Of a DNA stretch of 64,000 nucleotides, positions 3,878-40,125 are shown one piece after another; position 1 is the stretch's first letter, and each line of letters begins with the position of its first letter. The stretch lies in the sequence record PP355090.1; one strand, given 5' to 3'. The notes under the pieces were generated by a model. The model did no database searches and was not told where the DNA came from. It worked only from the letters and a program-made list of their open reading frames with translations. The stretch comes from Escherichia phage 232Ecol030PP. The position numbers were made by a program, and so were the translations under genes.

Positions 3878-4166
3878 AGTATTTCCTTAGGTTAATTGAG
3901 ATTTAAAATCCATGAGAGTATTATACTCCGGATAGTTTGTAAACTATTTCAACATCGCCTTTTGCTGCTTTATAACCTTCAGCCCAAGATACAACCGAGT
4001 TTTTATCCGAAGATTCAAATTCTGGCATTGGGCTTTCGCCAATGTTCACGCAGTATGTTTCTTCATTTTCGTCGAACCAAATAATTAAAGTAGTCATTTA
4101 TTTCTCCGTTTTCTGTATTTGTTTTGATAAGTCTATAATAACACCGTCCTTGGCGTTTGTACACAA

Positions 4167-4442
4167 TTATTTCATATTATTGAAATATTCTTCTGCGATT
4201 TCATCGTTATCATGGTAAACTTTAGAAGACAGTTTAACATAACCTTCAGCAGTGAACATGTTAATCACAACCTTTACAGTATACCACTGACCATCTTCAT
4301 TACCCATTACTGCATAGGTTTCAAACATCGGATGGTCAGGACCGATAACTTTAATATCATTCACTGTACGACCGAAATCTTCTGAAACACATTTCATAAA
4401 GAAGTTGAACAGTTCGCCGTAATTATCCATTTCATTCTCCAA
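4167..4442 (-). CDS. Hypothetical protein
   Basis: 91 aa ORF preceded by a GTTTAC -35-like box and TACTAT -10-like box. Confidence 0.6.
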   Translation of the reverse strand: MENEMDNYGELFNFFMKCVSEDFGRTVNDIKVIGPDHPMFETYAVMGNEDGQWYTVKVVINMFTAEGYVKLSSKVYHDNDEIAEEYFNNMK

Positions 4443-4472
4443 GTTGTTTTTGTATCAGTAGTTGATAGTTGT

Positions 4473-4502
4473 ATAGTACCATGGAAGAACAGGGATGTAA
4501 AC
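4473..4502 (-). promoter_or_regulatory. Early-type promoter-like element (GTTTAC -35, 18-nt spacer, TACTAT -10)
   Basis: minus strand reads AAAACTGTTTACATCCCTGTTCTTCCATGGTACTATAC; A-rich upstream tract. Confidence 0.4.
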
Positions 4503-4636: not shown

Positions 4637-4666
4637 AAAAAGCCCCAACCTTTCGGTCGGGGCTAA
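4637..4666 (-). terminator. Rho-independent terminator hairpin (copy A of 30-nt repeat)
   Basis: minus strand GCCCCGACC-GAAA-GGTTGGGGC followed by TTTTT, directly after the stop of the 4671..5144 gene. Confidence 0.7.
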
Positions 4667-4670
4667 AATG

Positions 4671-5144
4671 TTATTTGATTTGTTTAGCAGACCAAATGCG
4701 GTCTTTAATAATTTTTTGGATGTCTTCAACATACTCAAGAGAGTGAACATGTGGGTTATCTTTGAAACTATAAGCACGGGCTAACTTTTGGCCTTCGGTT
4801 TTGATTACTAAAAGCTCTTTAAGGATAGCTTCATATTTGGAGATAATTCCTTTAACAATATTTTTCTCTTGTGTGACTTTAGGATCTGCTTTAGGAGCAG
4901 GTTTACCTGAAGCCTTTGCAAAAGCAGCTCCAGTAGCAACTAAACTTTTCCAAGCCATACTAACTGCGTTCCCTGTAAATCCTTCGGCTTTCATATCACG
5001 AGCAAATTGGAATCGTGATTCATCGGAAGCATCTTTATAGGAATATTTACCCGCGGCAATGGCAGCTTTTGCAACAGCTTGAATTTCGGTGCTAGATGCT
5101 TCATTTAACACCGCTTCATTTAAAAATTGAGCATATGATTTCAT
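4671..5144 (-). CDS. Hypothetical late protein with capsid-targeting-sequence-like N-terminus (candidate internal head protein)
   Basis: 157 aa; N-terminus MKSYAQFLNEA resembles the T4 internal-protein CTS (MKTYQEFIAE) including an L-x-E site; own TATAAATA box upstream. Confidence 0.55.
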   Translation of the reverse strand: MKSYAQFLNEAVLNEASSTEIQAVAKAAIAAGKYSYKDASDESRFQFARDMKAEGFTGNAVSMAWKSLVATGAAFAKASGKPAPKADPKVTQEKNIVKGIISKYEAILKELLVIKTEGQKLARAYSFKDNPHVHSLEYVEDIQKIIKDRIWSAKQIK

Positions 5145-5180
5145 CTTATTTCCTGTTTTAATTCGTGGTTTTAATATACT

Positions 5181-5188
5181 TATTTATA
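5181..5188 (-). promoter_or_regulatory. Late promoter box (TATAAATA on minus strand)
   Basis: plus tatttata at 5181-5188, about 37 nt upstream of the ATG at 5144. Confidence 0.55.
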
Positions 5189-5190
5189 CT

Positions 5191-5220
5191 AAAAAGCCCC
5201 AACCTTTCGGTCGGGGCTAA
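5191..5220 (-). terminator. Rho-independent terminator hairpin (copy B of 30-nt repeat), end of tRNA/RNA transcription unit
   Basis: identical 30-mer to 4637-4666; hairpin plus U-tract on minus strand. Confidence 0.7.
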
Positions 5221-5221
5221 G

Positions 5222-5534
5222 CCTTGCGGCAACCTTGTCGGGGTTCCACCTGCTAAGGCAAGTGTTTGTACGAAACGCCGGGATTCGAACCCGGTTATTA
5301 AGCAGTTGACGCTACTCAATATTTTTAAAAGGCCATATCTCGACCATATCCGAACGTTCCGTCAAAAACGCTACTCGGCTTACGGCAAAGATATTTCCTC
5401 GAATCGATAATTCGGTGCGCCGTTTCTGCTGTGATATAAGGGGGCATTAACAAAACATAAAGATTTATTAATGCCAGTCCTTAAACAGGGAACATCAGTC
5501 CGACGACTTGCCGGTAGCGACCCGGCTTCTTGTC
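5222..5534 (-). ncRNA. Putative small stable RNA region downstream of the tRNA array (T4 rnaC/rnaD-like position)
   Basis: ~310 nt without a convincing ORF between tRNA-Arg and the terminator; contains tRNA-like T-arm GGGTTCGAATCCCGG and a long hairpin GGCATTAA...TTAATGCC; exact ends unknown. Confidence 0.4.
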
Positions 5535-5610
5535 TGGTCGAGGCAGTAGGGATCGAACCTACGACCCAGGACTTAGAAGGTCCTTGCTCTTCCTTCTGAG
5601 CTATGCCTCG
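5535..5610 (-). tRNA. tRNA-Arg (anticodon UCU)
   Basis: manual cloverleaf: acceptor CGAGGCA/TGCCTCG, anticodon loop CTTCTAA, T-loop TTCGATC, CCA encoded. Confidence 0.85.
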
Positions 5611-5614
5611 GATT

Positions 5615-5689
5615 TGGCGGACGTGATAGGATTCGAACCTATAACCAATCGCTTAACAGGCGATCGCTCTGCCATTGAGCTACACATCC
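5615..5689 (-). tRNA. tRNA-Asn (anticodon GUU)
   Basis: manual cloverleaf: acceptor GGATGTG/CACGTCC, anticodon stem ATCGC/GCGAT, loop CTGTTAA, T-arm ATAGG-TTCGAAT-CCTAT, CCA encoded. Confidence 0.75.
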
Positions 5690-5693
5690 AAAT

Positions 5694-5780
5694 TGGTGGG
5701 GAGTGATGGAGTCGAACCACCCGAGTCGCAATGACAATGGATTTACAGTCCACACCGCTACCTCTACGGGATAACTCCCC
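5694..5780 (-). tRNA. tRNA-Tyr (anticodon GUA), long variable arm
   Basis: acceptor GGGGAGT/ACTCCCC, anticodon loop CTGTAAA, long variable arm TGTCATTGCGACTCGGG, T-loop TTCGACT; architecture like bacterial tRNA-Tyr. Confidence 0.7.
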
Positions 5781-5789
5781 AAATTAATT

Positions 5790-5864
5790 TGGTGGCCCTG
5801 GGTGGAATTGAACCACCATCTGGCGATTATGAGTCGCTTGCTTGAACCTTCCAGCTACAGGGCC
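5790..5864 (-). tRNA. tRNA with CAU anticodon (Ile by analogy with T4, or Met)
   Basis: acceptor GGCCCTG/CAGGGCC, anticodon loop CTCATAA, T-arm GGTGG-TTCAATT-CCACC. Confidence 0.75.
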
Positions 5865-5865
5865 T

Positions 5866-5941
5866 TGGTGCTGATTGACGGAATCGAACCGCCGACCTTC
5901 TCATTACAAGTGAGTTGCTCTACCTACTGAGCTAAATCAGC
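5866..5941 (-). tRNA. tRNA-Thr (anticodon UGU)
   Basis: acceptor GCTGATT/AATCAGC, anticodon loop CTTGTAA, T-loop TTCGATT. Confidence 0.85.
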
Positions 5942-5946
5942 AAAAC

Positions 5947-6036
5947 TGGCGGAGGCGATAGGATTTGAACCTATGAGTCGCCGGAGCGACTGCCGGTTTT
6001 CAAGACCGGTGCATTAAACCACTCTGCCACGCCTCC
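5947..6036 (-). tRNA. tRNA-Ser (anticodon UGA), long variable arm
   Basis: GGAGGCG...CTTGAAA...long variable arm...ATAGG-TTCAAAT-CCTAT-CGCCTCC-G-CCA. Confidence 0.85.
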
Positions 6037-6039
6037 AGT

Positions 6040-6112
6040 CTCCGTGGCAGGATTTGAACCTACGACATTCTGCTCCCAAAGCAGACGCTCTACCAAACTG
6101 AGCTACACGGAG
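6040..6112 (-). tRNA. tRNA-Pro (anticodon UGG), CCA not encoded
   Basis: acceptor CTCCGTG/CACGGAG, anticodon loop TTTGGGA, T-loop TTCAAAT; 3' end followed by CT then tRNA-Ser. Confidence 0.85.
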
Positions 6113-6122
6113 TAAATTAAAT

Positions 6123-6196
<74 letters not shown>

Positions 6197-6201
6197 AAAT
6201 T

Positions 6202-6288
6202 TGGTGCGAGAAGTGGGACTCGAACCCACAAGGAAATCATTCCGCAGCATTTTAAGTGCTGTGCCTTTACCAATTTGGCCATTCTCGC
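6202..6288 (-). tRNA. tRNA-Leu (anticodon UAA), long variable arm
   Basis: acceptor GCGAGAA/TTCTCGC, anticodon loop CTTAAAA, T-loop TTCGAGT. Confidence 0.85.
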
Positions 6289-6289
6289 G

Positions 6290-6362
6290 CTGGGAATAAA
6301 GGACTCGAACCTTTGCATCCTGGAATCAAAATCCAGTGCCTTACCAACTTGGCTAATTCCCA
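6290..6362 (-). tRNA. tRNA-Gln (anticodon UUG), CCA not encoded
   Basis: acceptor TGGGAAT/ATTCCCA, anticodon loop TTTTGAT, T-loop TTCGAGT. Confidence 0.85.
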
Positions 6363-7148: not shown

Positions 7149-7333
7149 TATTCACCTTTAGAAATTTTATCCATAACAATAGCAATTAAACCAATTAAAA
7201 ATGCTACTACAAGTGAAAACACATTTTCTGCTGTAGTCAATAATCCACATATAAATCCAACAAACATTGAAAAACTAAAAGCGGAAGCAGAAATTGCAAT
7301 AGCAACATTTCGAATTAATTCACAACGTTTCAT
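7148..7333 (-). CDS. Hypothetical small membrane protein
   Basis: 61 aa, two hydrophobic helices (VAIAISASAFSFSMFVGFICGLL, VVAFLIGLIAIVM); preceded by promoter-like repeat. Confidence 0.5.
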   Translation of the reverse strand: MKRCELIRNVAIAISASAFSFSMFVGFICGLLTTAENVFSLVVAFLIGLIAIVMDKISKGE

Positions 7334-7361
7334 TTTATTCTCCTCAGTAGTAGATAGGGTA

Positions 7362-7391
7362 ATAGTATCACTACCCTATCTAAAAGTAAAC
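7362..7391 (-). promoter_or_regulatory. Early-type promoter-like element embedded in 9-bp inverted repeat (repeat copy 1)
   Basis: minus strand GTTTAC-18nt-TACTAT; inverted repeat GATAGGGTA(7353-7361)/TACCCTATC(7372-7380) brackets the -10-like box. Confidence 0.45.
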
Positions 7392-7625
7392 TTATTTTTT
7401 ACGAAAAATTGATTTATTTTCTGCTGCCCATTTTTCAATAACTGCAGCAGGACCAGTAACAACAATTTTATCACCGTAATCTTCTGCGGCGAGTTGACCG
7501 AAATTATCTAATGCATCACGAAGAACTCCATGAGGCATTTCACCCATTTTATCTTTCTTGCCAGTGTAAATAAACTCAACTTTTACATCAGCAGTTTCAG
7601 CAATAAATTCTTGGTAAGTTTTCAT
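7392..7625 (-). CDS. Internal head protein-like (capsid-targeting sequence MKTYQEFIAE)
   Basis: ORF track gives 7392..7637 (MEIKMKTYQEFIAE...); second Met starts the canonical CTS with an I-A-E cleavage-type site and has a better-spaced RBS, so 7625 is taken as the start. Confidence 0.7.
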   Translation of the reverse strand: MKTYQEFIAETADVKVEFIYTGKKDKMGEMPHGVLRDALDNFGQLAAEDYGDKIVVTGPAAVIEKWAAENKSIFRKK

Positions 7626-7659
7626 TTTGATTTCCATTTGGTTTTGTTTTGATAGGGTA

Positions 7660-7689
7660 ATAGTATCACAACTAAAACCCTATGTAAAC
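7660..7689 (-). promoter_or_regulatory. Early-type promoter-like element (repeat copy 2)
   Basis: minus strand GTTTAC-18nt-TACTAT; conserved core GGGTAATAGTATCAC; inverted-repeat arms ATAGGGT/ACCCTAT. Confidence 0.45.
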
Positions 7690-7701
7690 AACTTTGTGAA
7701 A

Positions 7702-36638: not shown

Positions 36639-37063
36639 TGCTTCTGATCCCTGAAACTCATGAATTAGTTCTCGAGAATGTCGAAGCACTTATTCCTGAA
36701 GCACAGGGTCGCTTTGACGAATTGTCTTCTGCTTTAAATAAAGACGATATAAATACAATTGTCGAGAATATGCTTGATGATGAAACTGATTTAGCGGTTG
36801 CATTAGCTTCTATTAATGAAAATATGCCGTTAAATGAATTTATCGTTAAACATGTTTCTGCCCGTGGTGAAATTACTCGCACTAAAGATCGCAAAACCCG
36901 CGAACGTAATGCATTTCAAACTACCGGGTTGTCTAAAGCAAAACGTAGACAAATTGCTCGTAAAGCTACCAAAACGAAGATTGCCAATCCAGCAGGTCAA
37001 TCTCGTGCTCAGCGTAAGCGTAAAAAAGCTCTTAAACGTCGTAAAGCATTAGGATTAAGCTAA
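36638..37063 (+). CDS. 68: Prohead core protein gp68
   Basis: 141 aa, basic C-terminus. Confidence 0.9.
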
Positions 37064-37701
37064 TGAATGAACCCCAATTACTAATTGAAACTTGGGGTCA
37101 ACCTGGCGAAATTATTGATGGCGTACCAATGCTTGAATCTCATGATGGAAAAGACTTAGGTTTAAAACCGGGTTTATACATCGAAGGAATATTCATGCAA
37201 GCGGAAGTTGTCAATAGAAATAAACGTCTTTATCCAAAACGTATATTAGAAAAAGCGGTAAAAGACTATATTAATGAGCAAGTTTTAACTAAACAAGCTC
37301 TCGGAGAATTAAATCATCCTCCACGCGCTAATGTTGACCCGATGCAAGCCGCTATCATTATAGAAGATATGTGGTGGAAAGGAAATGACGTATACGGACG
37401 AGCTCGTGTTATTGAAGGTGACCACGGTCCTGGAGATAAATTAGCAGCTAATATTCGTGCCGGATGGATTCCAGGAGTTTCTTCTCGTGGATTAGGTTCA
37501 TTGACTGACACAAATAAAGGTTATCGTATCGTAAACGAAGGATTCAAATTAACTGTAGGTGTTGATGCAGTATGGGGTCCAAGTGCTCCAGATGCATGGG
37601 TAACTCCTAAGGAAATTACAGAATCACAGACGGCGGAAGCCGATACAAGTGCCGATGACGCCTATATGGCTCTCGCAGAGGCCATGAAAAAAGCGTTATA
37701 A
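37063..37701 (+). CDS. 21: Prohead core protease gp21
   Basis: 212 aa. Confidence 0.95.
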   Translation: MNEPQLLIETWGQPGEIIDGVPMLESHDGKDLGLKPGLYIEGIFMQAEVVNRNKRLYPKRILEKAVKDYINEQVLTKQALGELNHPPRANVDPMQAAIIIEDMWWKGNDVYGRARVIEGDHGPGDKLAANIRAGWIPGVSSRGLGSLTDTNKGYRIVNEGFKLTVGVDAVWGPSAPDAWVTPKEITESQTAEADTSADDAYMALAEAMKKAL

Positions 37702-37731: not shown

Positions 37732-38541
37732 ATGCTTAAAGAACAACTGATTGCCGAAGCGCAGAAAATTGATGCTTCCGTTGCTCTTGATAGTATTTTC
37801 GAATCAGTTAATATTTCTCCGGAAGCAAAAGAAACTTTCGGCACTGTATTCGAAGCTACCGTCAAGCAGCACGCCGTTAAATTAGCTGAATCTCATATCG
37901 CTAAAATTGCTGAAAAAGCAGAAGAAGAAGTAGAAAAAAATAAAGAAGAAGCAGAAGAAAAAGCTGAGAAGAAAATCGCTGAGCAAGCTTCTAAATTCCT
38001 TGACCATCTTGCAAAAGAATGGCTCACTGAAAATAAATTAGCAGTAGATAAAGGTATCAAAGCCGAACTGTTTGAATCCATGCTTGGTGGATTGAAAGAG
38101 CTCTTCGTTGAACACAACGTTGTTGTTCCAGAAGAATCAGTTGATGTTGTAGCTGAAATGGAAGAAGAACTGCAAGAACATAAAGAAGAATCAGCTCGTC
38201 TGTTCGAAGAACTCAATAAGCGTGACGCATATATCAATTATGTGCAGCGTGAAGTGGCATTGAGCGAAAGTACTAAAGATCTGACTGAGTCTCAAAAAGA
38301 AAAAGTCTCTGCTCTGGTCGAAGGTATGGATTATTCAGATGCATTCTCAAGTAAATTGAGTGCAATCGTAGAAATGGTGAAGAAATCTAATAAAGATGAA
38401 AGCACTATTACTGAGAGTATAAATACTCCTGATACTGAAGCAGCCGGACTGAATTTCGTCACTGAAGCTGTAGAAGATAAATCTGCACAAGGTGCAGAAG
38501 ATATTGTAAGTGTATATGCGAAAGTCGCATCTCGTTTCTAA
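37732..38541 (+). CDS. 22: Prohead core scaffold protein gp22
   Basis: 269 aa, highly charged coiled coil. Confidence 0.95.
   Translation: MLKEQLIAEAQKIDASVALDSIFESVNISPEAKETFGTVFEATVKQHAVKLAESHIAKIAEKAEEEVEKNKEEAEEKAEKKIAEQASKFLDHLAKEWLTENKLAVDKGIKAELFESMLGGLKELFVEHNVVVPEESVDVVAEMEEELQEHKEESARLFEELNKRDAYINYVQREVALSESTKDLTESQKEKVSALVEGMDYSDAFSSKLSAIVEMVKKSNKDESTITESINTPDTEAAGLNFVTEAVEDKSAQGAEDIVSVYAKVASRF
38418..38425 (+). promoter_or_regulatory. Candidate late promoter TATAAATA inside gene 22, upstream of gene 23
   Basis: exact TATAAATA about 135 nt upstream of the gene 23 ATG; no other exact box between genes 22 and 23. Confidence 0.35.
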
Positions 38542-38559: not shown

Positions 38560-40125
38560 ATGACTATCAAAACTAAAGCTGAACTTTTGAACAAATGGAA
38601 GCCATTACTGGAAGGTGAAGGTTTACCGGAAATTGCTAATAGCAAACAAGCGATTATCGCTAAAATCTTTGAAAACCAGGAAAAAGATTTCCAGACAGCT
38701 CCGGAATATAAAGACGAAAAAATTGCTCAGGCATTCGGTTCTTTCTTAACAGAAGCTGAAATCGGTGGTGACCACGGTTACAATGCTACCAACATCGCTG
38801 CAGGTCAGACTTCTGGAGCAGTAACTCAGATTGGCCCAGCTGTTATGGGTATGGTACGTCGTGCTATTCCTAACCTGATTGCTTTCGATATTTGTGGTGT
38901 TCAGCCAATGAACAGCCCGACTGGCCAGGTATTCGCACTGCGCGCAGTATATGGTAAAGACCCAATCGCTTCCGGTGCTAAAGAAGCATTCCACCCAATG
39001 TATGGTCCAGATGCAATGTTCTCTGGTCAGGGTGCTGCTAAGAAATTCGCTGCTTTGAAAGCAAGTGATACTCTTGAAGTCGGAACTATTTACACTCACT
39101 TCTTCCAGGAAACTGGTACAGTATATCTGCAAGCTACAGCAGCTAAACAAATTAATTCAGGCGCATCTGACGCAGACAAATTAGATGCTGAAATTAAGAA
39201 ACAAATGGAAGCTGGTGTACTGGTAGAAATCGCTGAAGGTATGGCTACTTCTATCGCTGAACTTCAAGAAGGTTTTAACGGTTCTACCGATAACCCGTGG
39301 AATGAAATGGGCTTCCGTATCGATAAACAAGTTATCGAAGCTAAATCTCGTCAGCTGAAAGCTGCTTACTCTATTGAATTAGCACAAGACCTCCGCGCTG
39401 TTCACGGTATGGATGCTGATGCTGAACTGTCTGGTATTCTGGCTACAGAAATTATGCTGGAAATCAACCGTGAAGTTGTTGATTGGATTAACTACTCCGC
39501 TCAGGTTGGTAAATCTGGTATGACCCTGACTCCGGGTTCTAAAGCTGGTGTATTTGACTTCCAGGACCCAATCGATATTCGTGGTGCTCGCTGGGCAGGT
39601 GAATCCTTTAAAGCTCTGTTGTTCCAGATTGACAAAGAAGCAGTTGAAATTGCTCGTCAGACTGGTCGCGGCGAAGGTAACTTCATTATCGCTTCCCGTA
39701 ACGTAGTTAACGTTCTGGCTTCAGTTGATACCGGCATTTCTTATGCTGCACAAGGTCTGGCTACTGGCTTTAACACTGATACTACCAAGTCAGTATTTGC
39801 TGGTGTTCTGGGTGGTAAATACCGTGTATATATCGACCAGTATGCTAAACAGGATTATTTCACCGTAGGTTATAAAGGTCCGAACGAAATGGATGCTGGT
39901 ATTTACTATGCTCCATATGTAGCTCTGACTCCGCTGCGTGGTTCTGATCCGAAGAACTTCCAACCGGTAATGGGATTCAAAACTCGTTACGGTATCGGTA
40001 TCAACCCATTTGCAGAATCCGCTGCTCAGGCTCCGGCTTCTCGCATCCAGAGCGGTATGCCTTCTATTCTGAATAGCCTTGGTAAAAACGCTTACTTTAG
40101 ACGTGTATATGTTAAAGGTATCTAA
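38560..40125 (+). CDS. 23: Major capsid protein gp23
   Basis: 521 aa. Confidence 0.97.
   Translation: MTIKTKAELLNKWKPLLEGEGLPEIANSKQAIIAKIFENQEKDFQTAPEYKDEKIAQAFGSFLTEAEIGGDHGYNATNIAAGQTSGAVTQIGPAVMGMVRRAIPNLIAFDICGVQPMNSPTGQVFALRAVYGKDPIASGAKEAFHPMYGPDAMFSGQGAAKKFAALKASDTLEVGTIYTHFFQETGTVYLQATAAKQINSGASDADKLDAEIKKQMEAGVLVEIAEGMATSIAELQEGFNGSTDNPWNEMGFRIDKQVIEAKSRQLKAAYSIELAQDLRAVHGMDADAELSGILATEIMLEINREVVDWINYSAQVGKSGMTLTPGSKAGVFDFQDPIDIRGARWAGESFKALLFQIDKEAVEIARQTGRGEGNFIIASRNVVNVLASVDTGISYAAQGLATGFNTDTTKSVFAGVLGGKYRVYIDQYAKQDYFTVGYKGPNEMDAGIYYAPYVALTPLRGSDPKNFQPVMGFKTRYGIGINPFAESAAQAPASRIQSGMPSILNSLGKNAYFRRVYVKGI

Follow-up and report, generated by a model that had tools for sequence, protein, structure and literature searches.

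A predicted late gene between two copies of a terminator hairpin in a T-even-type phage: a repeat-bounded cassette that likely encodes an internal head protein

Introduction

In T-even phages, the literature speaks of two loci for the genes of internal head proteins (Ips) (PMC2839356, PMC12373910), where, in the account of Repoila et al. (1994) given by PMC2839356, each variable ip open reading frame (ORF) is flanked by conserved regulatory motifs that have been proposed as crossover points for gene shuffling; over 30 IP variants are mentioned for Comeau et al. (2007). Promoter-early stem-loop (PeSL) cassettes have been described for RB49/phi1, PST/T4 and nt-1/KVP40 (Arbiol 2010, PMC2839356; Comeau 2014). 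Polymorphic Ip cassettes bounded by regulatory repeats have been a known kind since 1994, and PeSL motifs have been known since 2010 and 2014. Ip1, Ip2 and Ip3 are inhibitors of GmrSD type IV restriction enzymes, a different one in each case, Ip4 to Ip10 being without a known target (PMC12373910), and for an Ip of the ipI locus of Bas37 a fitness defect is seen only when the host still has the K-12 type IV restriction systems (bioRxiv 2025.11.20.689424). The subject of this work is a gene of 157 residues, here called gene A, located within positions 4637-5220 of a 64,000-nucleotide stretch of Escherichia phage 232Ecol030PP (record PP355090.1; the whole stretch is referred to as the window). 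It lies between rnaC and e.8, across the tRNA cluster from ipI and outside both described Ip loci. What differs here is the e.8-rnaC site, the combination of a late promoter with a GC-rich terminator, and the fact that gene A and a second gene found at this site in relatives, gene B, are annotated only as hypothetical.

The window is that of a Tequatrovirus, with relatives at 99% identity and 729 matching phage records. An original prediction, made by a model from the letters and ORFs of the window, had seen in gene A a self-contained late unit with a capsid-targeting N-terminus, bracketed by two identical hairpins and open to gain or loss by recombination between them. The reading favoured below, to which a probability of roughly 70% is given, is that of a late unit placed after the tRNA-operon terminator, encoding an Ip-type head protein, bounded by a repeat and swappable among phages.

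A late transcription unit between two copies of one terminator

The repeat, AAAAAGCCCCAACCTTTCGGTCGGGGCTAA, occurs exactly twice in the window, on either side of gene A (Table 1), and a search at up to three mismatches yielded no further copy in the 64 kb, with 100 shuffles giving 0 matches. The predicted identity of the two 30-mers is exact, and needs correction only in its extent, since the similarity runs on through one A/G mismatch and GTAT to about 35 nucleotides in total. On the minus strand each 30-mer reads TTAGCCCCGACCGAAAGGTTGGGGCTTTTT, a 10-bp stem with seven GC pairs, closed by a GAAA tetraloop and followed by UUUUU. Folding of both copies gives -20 to -21 kcal/mol, with z scores of -4.2 to -5.0 against shuffles, and an independent consensus scanner finds both of them terminator-like on the minus strand only. 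The two copies are predicted to be strong intrinsic (Rho-independent) terminators of that strand, on which gene A is also encoded; the strand of the gene and of both terminators is a correction to the original prediction, which had the 157-residue ORF and its start, MKSYAQFLNEA, right. It is of note that the exact 22-nucleotide hairpin GCCCCGACCGAAAGGTTGGGGC, with its T-run, also lies 3' of unrelated genes in two IMG/VR contigs (L010, 8608-8629; L011, 5209-5230), one of which is 251 kb long; it could be either a convergent "ideal" GAAA-tetraloop terminator or an element that is more widely shared.

The minus-strand order of the region is ten tRNA genes, rnaD, rnaC, the upstream hairpin (copy 2), a late promoter, gene A, the downstream hairpin (copy 1), a spacer of approximately 200 nucleotides and e.8. 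The genes rnaC and rnaD, with which the tRNA operon ends on its 3' side, encode small stable RNAs, and positions 5185-5540 are 96% identical to the rnaD-rnaC-terminator region of T4. Because of this order, the upstream copy is predicted to be the terminator of the tRNA-rnaD-rnaC operon, as well as forming the left boundary of the cassette, and it stands at the same position, as the sole copy, in T2, T4 and T6. The downstream copy is the predicted terminator of gene A and the right boundary, and appears to be a copy of the preceding tRNA-operon terminator. The bracketing hairpins are both there, although the upstream one is a pre-existing tRNA/rnaC terminator and was not brought by the gene. 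The flank that follows the downstream copy, GGTATCTAGG, is the one found after the single hairpin of T2 and T6, the corresponding sequence in T4 being GGTATCTAAG. Transposition with target-site duplication was considered as an origin of the repeat and rejected: the cassette carries no transposase or homing gene, and the 30 bp are those of the pre-existing terminator.

Between the upstream hairpin and gene A lies the late-promoter box TATAAATA, one of 26 such boxes in the window (approximately 10 expected), while a scan for sigma-70 promoters in the same interval gave no match. All of the A-bearing Tequatrovirus genomes examined retain this box after their first hairpin (the window, Kha5h, DalCa, G4500, RB27, B1.1, fD1 and the IMG/VR contigs L008, L009 and L012). 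The Mosigvirus PhAPEC2 is an exception, with TTTTGGCATA in place of TATAAATA after the first hairpin, and promoter placement may differ in Mosigvirus. As had been predicted, gene A has a late box of its own, to which a ribosome-binding site and a terminator can be added, and the box, the Shine-Dalgarno sequence, the 157-residue ORF and the intrinsic terminator make up what reads as a self-contained late transcription unit.

Gene A is a conserved gene under purifying selection. Its ratio of nonsynonymous to synonymous divergence (dN/dS) is 0.05-0.11, and it is present in 511 phage records, at a single place per genome each time, with homologs confined to T-even-type phages. A chance ORF opposite a real gene can be ruled out by a dN/dS of about 0.1, by conservation across three genera and by mass-spectrometry detection. 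Copies of gene A that are split in two occur in fPS-65, PYps55T and 235Ecol030PP, and its cluster has members of 93-111 residues; gene B is broken in G4500 (L005, 831-1393; 54 and 133 residues) and in OE5505, where it is in two pieces. Such frameshifted or shortened copies fit genes that are dispensable and sometimes decaying. In the Kha5h record (L001, between 2531 and 3289) gene A is present at 97.5% identity but unannotated.

A site that is empty, single, alternative or double

Comparison with T2, T4 and T6, as suggested in the original prediction, showed that all three have just one hairpin here and lack a gene, with the same outer flanks: in T4, the left flank (..AGATACC) is that of the downstream copy of the window and the right flank, the rnaC trailer, is that of the upstream copy. 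Seven genomes (T2, T4, T6, ELT1, Sf24, PST and 236Ecol005) have such an empty site, with one hairpin and a gap between rnaC and e.8 of 228-240 nucleotides, as against 793 in the window, and the single-hairpin junction is exact to the nucleotide in all seven. When the T4 empty site was used as a query, the span of the match varied with the state of the site, from 426 bp where it is empty to about 985 bp with A, about 1105 bp with B and about 1660 bp with both genes. Of 36 genomes sampled systematically among the full-coverage matches, 7 were empty, 20 carried A (one of them, B1.1, in a divergent form, A'), 4 carried B and 5 carried both. Gene B stands alone in RB14, EP01 and FL44 and accompanies A in DalCa, G4500, the Mosigvirus PhAPEC2 and two IMG/VR contigs, while the Klebsiella Jiaodavirus KpV477 has a hairpin, TATAAATA and an A-like gene downstream of its tRNAs.

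Gene B (187 residues, RB14ncORF136c) is unrelated to A, lies 3' of the hairpin and has its own near-consensus late box; it is present in 165 phage records, at one place per genome. Its terminator is built on a different stem, CCCTATC/GATAGGG, and has GGGCTTTTTGGTATCTAGG in common with the canonical copy. When all terminators between rnaC and e.8 were tabulated, the number of canonical hairpins equalled one plus the presence of A in 21 of 21 loci. As a block, the unit is thus found in some relatives and missing or replaced in others, and the arrangement of the window is by no means universal. The reading of the locus as a cassette that is gained and lost is supported by these states and by boundaries that fall at the hairpins, as described below.

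Mosaic boundaries and the role of the repeat

Alignments of the window to RB27 or B1.1 show 93-100% identity through rnaC, a drop to 50-80% over gene A that begins right after the upstream hairpin, and a recovery to 90-100% that starts at the 3' end of A and the downstream hairpin and extends through the non-coding spacer and e.8. Between DalCa and PhAPEC2, identity is 95-100% up to hairpin 1, 45-88% over A, and 93-100% from hairpin 2 through B. In both comparisons, the block boundaries fall at the hairpins. Synonymous divergence (dS) follows the same pattern: between the window and RB27 it is 1.14 for A and 0.21 for e.8, and between DalCa and PhAPEC2 the values for A, B and e.8 are 1.83, 0.18 and 0.59, respectively, which amounts to a 5- to 10-fold gap between cassette and flank. 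Faster evolution of A was considered as a cause of the mosaic and ruled out, the excess divergence being synonymous (1.14 as against 0.21). Because of these contrasts, and of a dN/dS that is low (0.02-0.11) in all pairs and genes compared (A, B and e.8), each cassette seems to have had its own history under purifying selection. On a neighbour-joining tree of the e.8 flank (464 nucleotides, without support values) the states of the site are intermingled, an observation that is only suggestive.

Two genomes carry what could be traces of events within the repeat itself. The single hairpin of 236Ecol005 combines a CCAGCC variant and AGTAT with CTAGG, the flank of the terminal copy; CCAGCC is otherwise found only in upstream copies (RB27, B1.1 and L012), as is AGTAT (the window, Kha5h, L009 and L012), and such a chimeric junction is what a crossover at the 3' edge of the repeat would be expected to leave. 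In PhAPEC2, both hairpin copies (L013, 1425-1455 and 1972-2003) carry a private CCTTCC variant, GCCCCTTCC, with two stem mismatches, and this common variant suggests conversion from copy to copy.

It could also be argued that an efficient terminator has simply been used twice and that the hairpins have no role in recombination, the polymorphism having been made and spread by recombination in the long flanks during co-infection. Flanks that are 90-100% identical over hundreds of base pairs are indeed a far better recombination substrate than 30 bp, gene B is equally polymorphic despite its different terminator stem, and the 22-nucleotide hairpin terminates unrelated genes in viral contigs. The two copies, moreover, often differ in relatives, as in Kha5h and RB27 (stem) and in fD1 and B1.1 (loop), so that the perfect identity seen in the window is not universal. 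Nevertheless, the first empty site requires both endpoints to lie in the repeat, with a junction that is nucleotide-exact in seven genomes, identity breaks at the hairpins and not at random places of the flanks, the 236Ecol005 junction is chimeric, and the PhAPEC2 copies share their private variant. Recombination that makes use of the flanks only is, in this light, unlikely. The original idea of recombination between the repeats is supported, with the refinements that it would also involve exchange, that the copies are often non-identical, and that most of the spread perhaps occurs through the flanks.

A further proposal concerns spread by a homing endonuclease. The A-less allele may hitch-hike with SegB-driven co-conversion: SegB would cut the tRNA region of phages that lack segB, and repair from an A-less donor that has segB would co-convert the nearby e.8-rnaC site, the hairpins being incidental. 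Preferential inheritance of the tRNA region driven by SegB has been published (Brok-Volchanskaya 2008, as cited in PMC4122927), and all five genomes with a segB-type gene adjoining tRNA-Arg (loci L002, L006, L022, L023 and L024: T4, T6, PST, EP01 and FL44) are devoid of A, with T4, T6 and PST empty and EP01 and FL44 carrying B only, while neither the tRNA cluster of the window nor the other A-bearing genomes sampled contain segB. That this should be the main route is nonetheless very improbable; the association comprises five genomes only, empty sites also exist without segB (T2, ELT1, Sf24 and 236Ecol005), and such a process would account for the spread, and not for the origin, of the exact single-hairpin junction.

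The leader and the product of gene A

The leader of A, MKSYAQFLNE followed by Ala, is a good match to the T4 capsid-targeting sequence (CTS), judging by residues: it shares M1, K2, Y4, F7 and E10, and then Ala, with the CTS of IPIII and IPII, MKTYQEFIAE followed by Ala. The CTS-like N-terminus of the original prediction is thereby borne out, Y4, F7 and E10 with the following Ala being kept. For targeting, residues 4 and 7 of the CTS are reported to be important, as are residues 8 and 10 when it comes to processing (Mullaney and Black 1996, as given in PMC9026906). Position 8 is Leu in A and Ile in IPIII; Y4, F7, positions 8 and 10 and the small residue that comes next are retained in A, A' and B (whose leader is MKTYAEFLTE) and across genera. 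In the six frames of the 64-kb window, a loose CTS pattern matches only A and the Ip gene of the ipI locus. Similarity of A to B and to Ip1-5 is limited to residues 1-11. Ip4, which is of equal length (157 residues), was considered as a homolog of A and discarded, as there is no similarity past the leader.

The motif LNE-A, a putative site of the prohead protease gp21, lies at residues 8-11 of A and again at 13-16. Residues 7-16 (5100-5144) read FLNEA-VLNEA, a five-residue duplication that creates two potential gp21 sites; A' and the Mosigvirus alleles align without this insertion. The enzyme expected to cleave the A leader, gp21, is encoded in the window together with the scaffold gp22 and gp23 (Table 1).

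Protein A has an isoelectric point of 9.5 and 21 lysines, and B is likewise basic. It is assigned to phrog_2280, of unknown function, and is called a "hypothetical protein" in every database, as is B. Searches with A against Pfam and PADLOC gave no match, and a PDB sequence profile gave only a spurious designer-PPR match, with no passing stretch. An AlphaFold2 model built on an 8-row alignment (mean predicted local distance difference test score of 76) is all-helical with a disordered leader; its predicted domains are a helical N-domain, which is the conserved part (residues 18-75), and a helical hairpin, joined by a Lys/Pro linker. Comparison of this model to the PDB by Foldseek gave no fold match (best E value 1.1).

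The ortholog of A in Yersinia phage fD1, g140, is near-identical and occupies the same position, and its product, Gp140, is listed as phage-particle-associated in an LC-MS/MS analysis of purified virions, while the product of the neighbouring gene e.8 is not listed. Virion proteomics, which the original prediction had named as a check, thus places the A ortholog of fD1 with the particle, albeit in a permissive dataset in which about half of the gene products were called (113-137 of 277, including DenV, NudE and lysozyme).

These observations make it likely that the product of gene A is an internal-protein-type head protein. Alternatively, A could be an ordinary late cytoplasmic protein, or could associate with the virion without using the CTS route, its leader resembling a CTS through constraints on initiation and on the 5' end or through recombination there. 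The presence of clearly non-structural proteins in the fD1 proteome agrees with this possibility, as do the five of ten leader residues that are unlike MKTYQEFIAE, the location of A outside both known Ip loci (PMC2839356, PMC12373910), the uniformly hypothetical database names of A and B, and the fact that the expert annotators of RB14, who named Ip4, ipI and Ip5, left B hypothetical. What speaks against it is that A, A' and B retain the experimentally important leader residues, also from one genus to another, that A and B, otherwise unrelated, have only the leader in common, and that the loose CTS pattern singles out A and a bona fide Ip gene in the window. Late expression, which is predicted here, is also what prohead assembly needs, and A is basic and lysine-rich, with a leader that is disordered in the AlphaFold2 model. 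Taken together, this alternative is considered quite unlikely.

Genomic neighbourhood

The features of the window that are discussed here are collected in Table 1. The right-hand flank, 4167-4501, which includes the promoter-like site and e.8, is 90-100% identical to RB27 and B1.1.

Table 1. Positions of the cassette, its neighbours and head genes in the 64,000-nucleotide window
Feature	Position	Strand	Basis and remarks
Gene e.8	ATG 4430, stop 4167	minus	ORF and T4 annotation
Early-type promoter-like site in spacer	4473-4501	minus	Promoter scan
Downstream 30-mer copy (hairpin 1)	4637-4666, stem 4641-4664	minus	Exact repeat; fold; terminator scan
Gene A, 157 residues	4671-5144	minus	ORF; leader residues 1-10 at 5115-5144
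Shine-Dalgarno sequence AGGAAA	5149-5154	minus	Direct reading; 4 nucleotides (TAAG) 5' of the ATG at 5144
Late-promoter box TATAAATA	5181-5188	minus	Exact box; 2 nucleotides 3' of the upstream hairpin, 36 nucleotides 5' of the ATG
Upstream 30-mer copy (hairpin 2)	5191-5220, stem 5195-5218	minus	Exact repeat; -20.3 kcal/mol, z -4.2; terminator scan
rnaC	~5269-5407	minus	Alignment transfer from T4 annotation, approximate
rnaD	~5414-5533	minus	Alignment transfer from T4 annotation, approximate
Ten tRNA genes	5535-6362	minus	ARAGORN
ipI-locus gene, 77 residues, MKTYQEFIAE...	7392-7625	minus	phrog_8111, "internal virion protein"
gp21 prohead protease	37063-37701	plus	Pfam Peptidase_S77, E = 1.5e-111
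gp22 scaffold	37732-38541		3' of gp21; Pfam T4_CASP, 5e-90
gp23	38560-40125		3' of gp22; Pfam Gp23, 3e-121

Several observations concern the surroundings of the cassette. A 58-residue ORF (MTTLIIWFDENEE..., 3921-4097, minus strand) between e.6 and e.8 is similar to RB14ncORF134c and RB69ORF145c; the same position in T4, T6 and RB27 is occupied by an unrelated e.7 of 110-111 residues, which amounts to a neighbouring polymorphism of alternative cassettes. The element GTGATACTATTACCCTATC, comprising the -10 region of an early promoter and a stem, is found on both sides of the ipI-locus gene of the window (flanks 7330-7700), and resembles the IP-locus element of the Repoila type, unlike the hairpin of gene A. 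Record X75802, considered as a possible IP-locus sequence, covers the ndd region of T4 and has no bearing on the matter. Within the tRNA cluster, ARAGORN calls the gene at 5790-5864 (minus strand) tRNA-Met (CAT), while the record of RB14 has the T4-type homolog as tRNA-Ile with a CAU anticodon; the gene is probably tRNA-Ile. In the G4500 record (L005, 2118-2211), rnaC is annotated as "tRNA-Lys(ttt)".

A proposed mechanism and its implications

In the mechanism proposed here, the 10-residue leader would target A to the core of the prohead scaffold, and gp21 would cut after Glu10 (LNE-A), and possibly also at the duplicated LNE-A after Glu15. After its packaging, the basic mature protein would be injected together with the DNA. 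At the level of the genome, homologous crossovers within the 30-35-bp repeat would delete A and leave the single-hairpin site of T2, T4 and T6, and the reverse reaction could insert it. Crossovers in the same repeat could swap alleles and neighbouring cassettes such as B, by Campbell-type excision and integration of the sort proposed for PeSL cassettes, after which ordinary recombination in the long flanks would spread each state. The form of T2, T4 and T6 is most simply seen as a derived deletion, because A and B together are common to two genera.

Several points weigh against this scheme. A repeat of 30-35 bp is reportedly short for efficient homologous recombination in T4 (Singer et al. 1982), and for the spread of variants that already exist, crossovers in the long conserved flanks are enough. 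Strong constraint on rnaC makes the left breakpoint look sharper, the junctions are as compatible with insertion as with deletion, and the 236Ecol005 footprint could be a point mutation together with an allelic hairpin variant. As for the protein, the leader departs from MKTYQEFIAE at positions 3, 5, 6, 8 and 9, gene A is outside both of the loci described for ip genes, and its promoter is of the late type, while canonical ip genes have stem elements and a promoter of the early type in front of them. Support for packaging is indirect, as the proteome of fD1 is permissive and its data include no N-terminal A peptide that shows cleavage, and the family and fold searches with A (Pfam, PADLOC, PDB and Foldseek) gave no functional clue.

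If injected, A could block a specific host defence, most likely a type IV restriction enzyme, a speculative suggestion made by analogy with Ip1, Ip2 and Ip3. A bolder proposal, which can only be put forward tentatively, is that e.8-rnaC is a third, unrecognised Ip locus of T-even phages, where the late, injected proteins A, its old allele A' and B would inhibit host defences (GmrSD or other type IV enzymes most plausibly), with the terminator repeat as the crossover point for loss, regain and swapping between genera. Such a locus would have escaped notice owing to the deleted, single-hairpin form that is common to T2, T4 and T6.

A and B are widespread, leader-bearing, unannotated candidates located outside the loci that are usually searched, and are concrete new genes that could be tried on restriction systems for which no phage inhibitor is known. 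The phrog_2280 and RB14ncORF136c families could be relabelled as putative internal head proteins in the annotation of therapy phages. The locus is also a natural example of loss and exchange of a repeat-bounded module, with empty, single, alternative and double states and one crossover footprint, and is convenient for measuring how short regulatory repeats drive the turnover of accessory genes in virulent phages. Its main value is practical, in the form of two candidate injected counter-defence proteins and a system in which to study repeat-bounded gene turnover.

Comparison with known systems

The closest described relatives are the T-even Ips (IpI-IpIII and Ip4-Ip10). Like these, A begins with a leader of approximately 10 residues, MK[ST][YF]x[EQ]F..E, followed by a small residue, and, as among A and B, the mature parts of Ips are mutually unrelated, small and mostly basic. 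In both cases presence varies between close relatives, and single-gene units are separated by regulatory repeats; the Ips are non-essential. However, A is found at the e.8-rnaC site and not at the ipI or ipII/ipIII locus, although location describes the family more than it bears on mechanism, and it is preceded by a canonical late promoter and followed by a GC-rich terminator, whereas the Ips have an early-type promoter and AT-rich stem elements. The IP-locus repeats, as described second-hand, are early promoters with weak AT-rich stem-loops, while the repeat of A is a predicted strong GC-rich intrinsic terminator beside a late promoter. Beyond the leader, A is also unlike the named Ips in sequence (aligned set, Ip1-5), and its entry into the head and injection are proposed.

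PeSL cassettes resemble that of A in carrying a terminator/promoter motif on both sides of an accessory ORF, and in having ORF-less relatives with a single motif and the same outer flanks. The model proposed for them, in which excision and insertion occur through recombination of the flanking motifs and the module is transcriptionally insulated, is the one drawn upon here. PeSLs, however, involve sigma-70-like early promoters and motifs of approximately 100 bp in many dispersed copies, in contrast to the late box TATAAATA and the 30-35-bp repeat of the A cassette, with two copies in 64 kb.

Finally, the morons of lambdoid phages are, like A, single extra genes with their own promoter and terminator, inserted between two backbone genes. 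They lack homologous bounding repeats, and their insertion is ascribed to illegitimate recombination (PMC2839356). Morons are typically expressed from the prophage, whereas gene A belongs to a virulent phage and is predicted to be expressed late in the lytic cycle.

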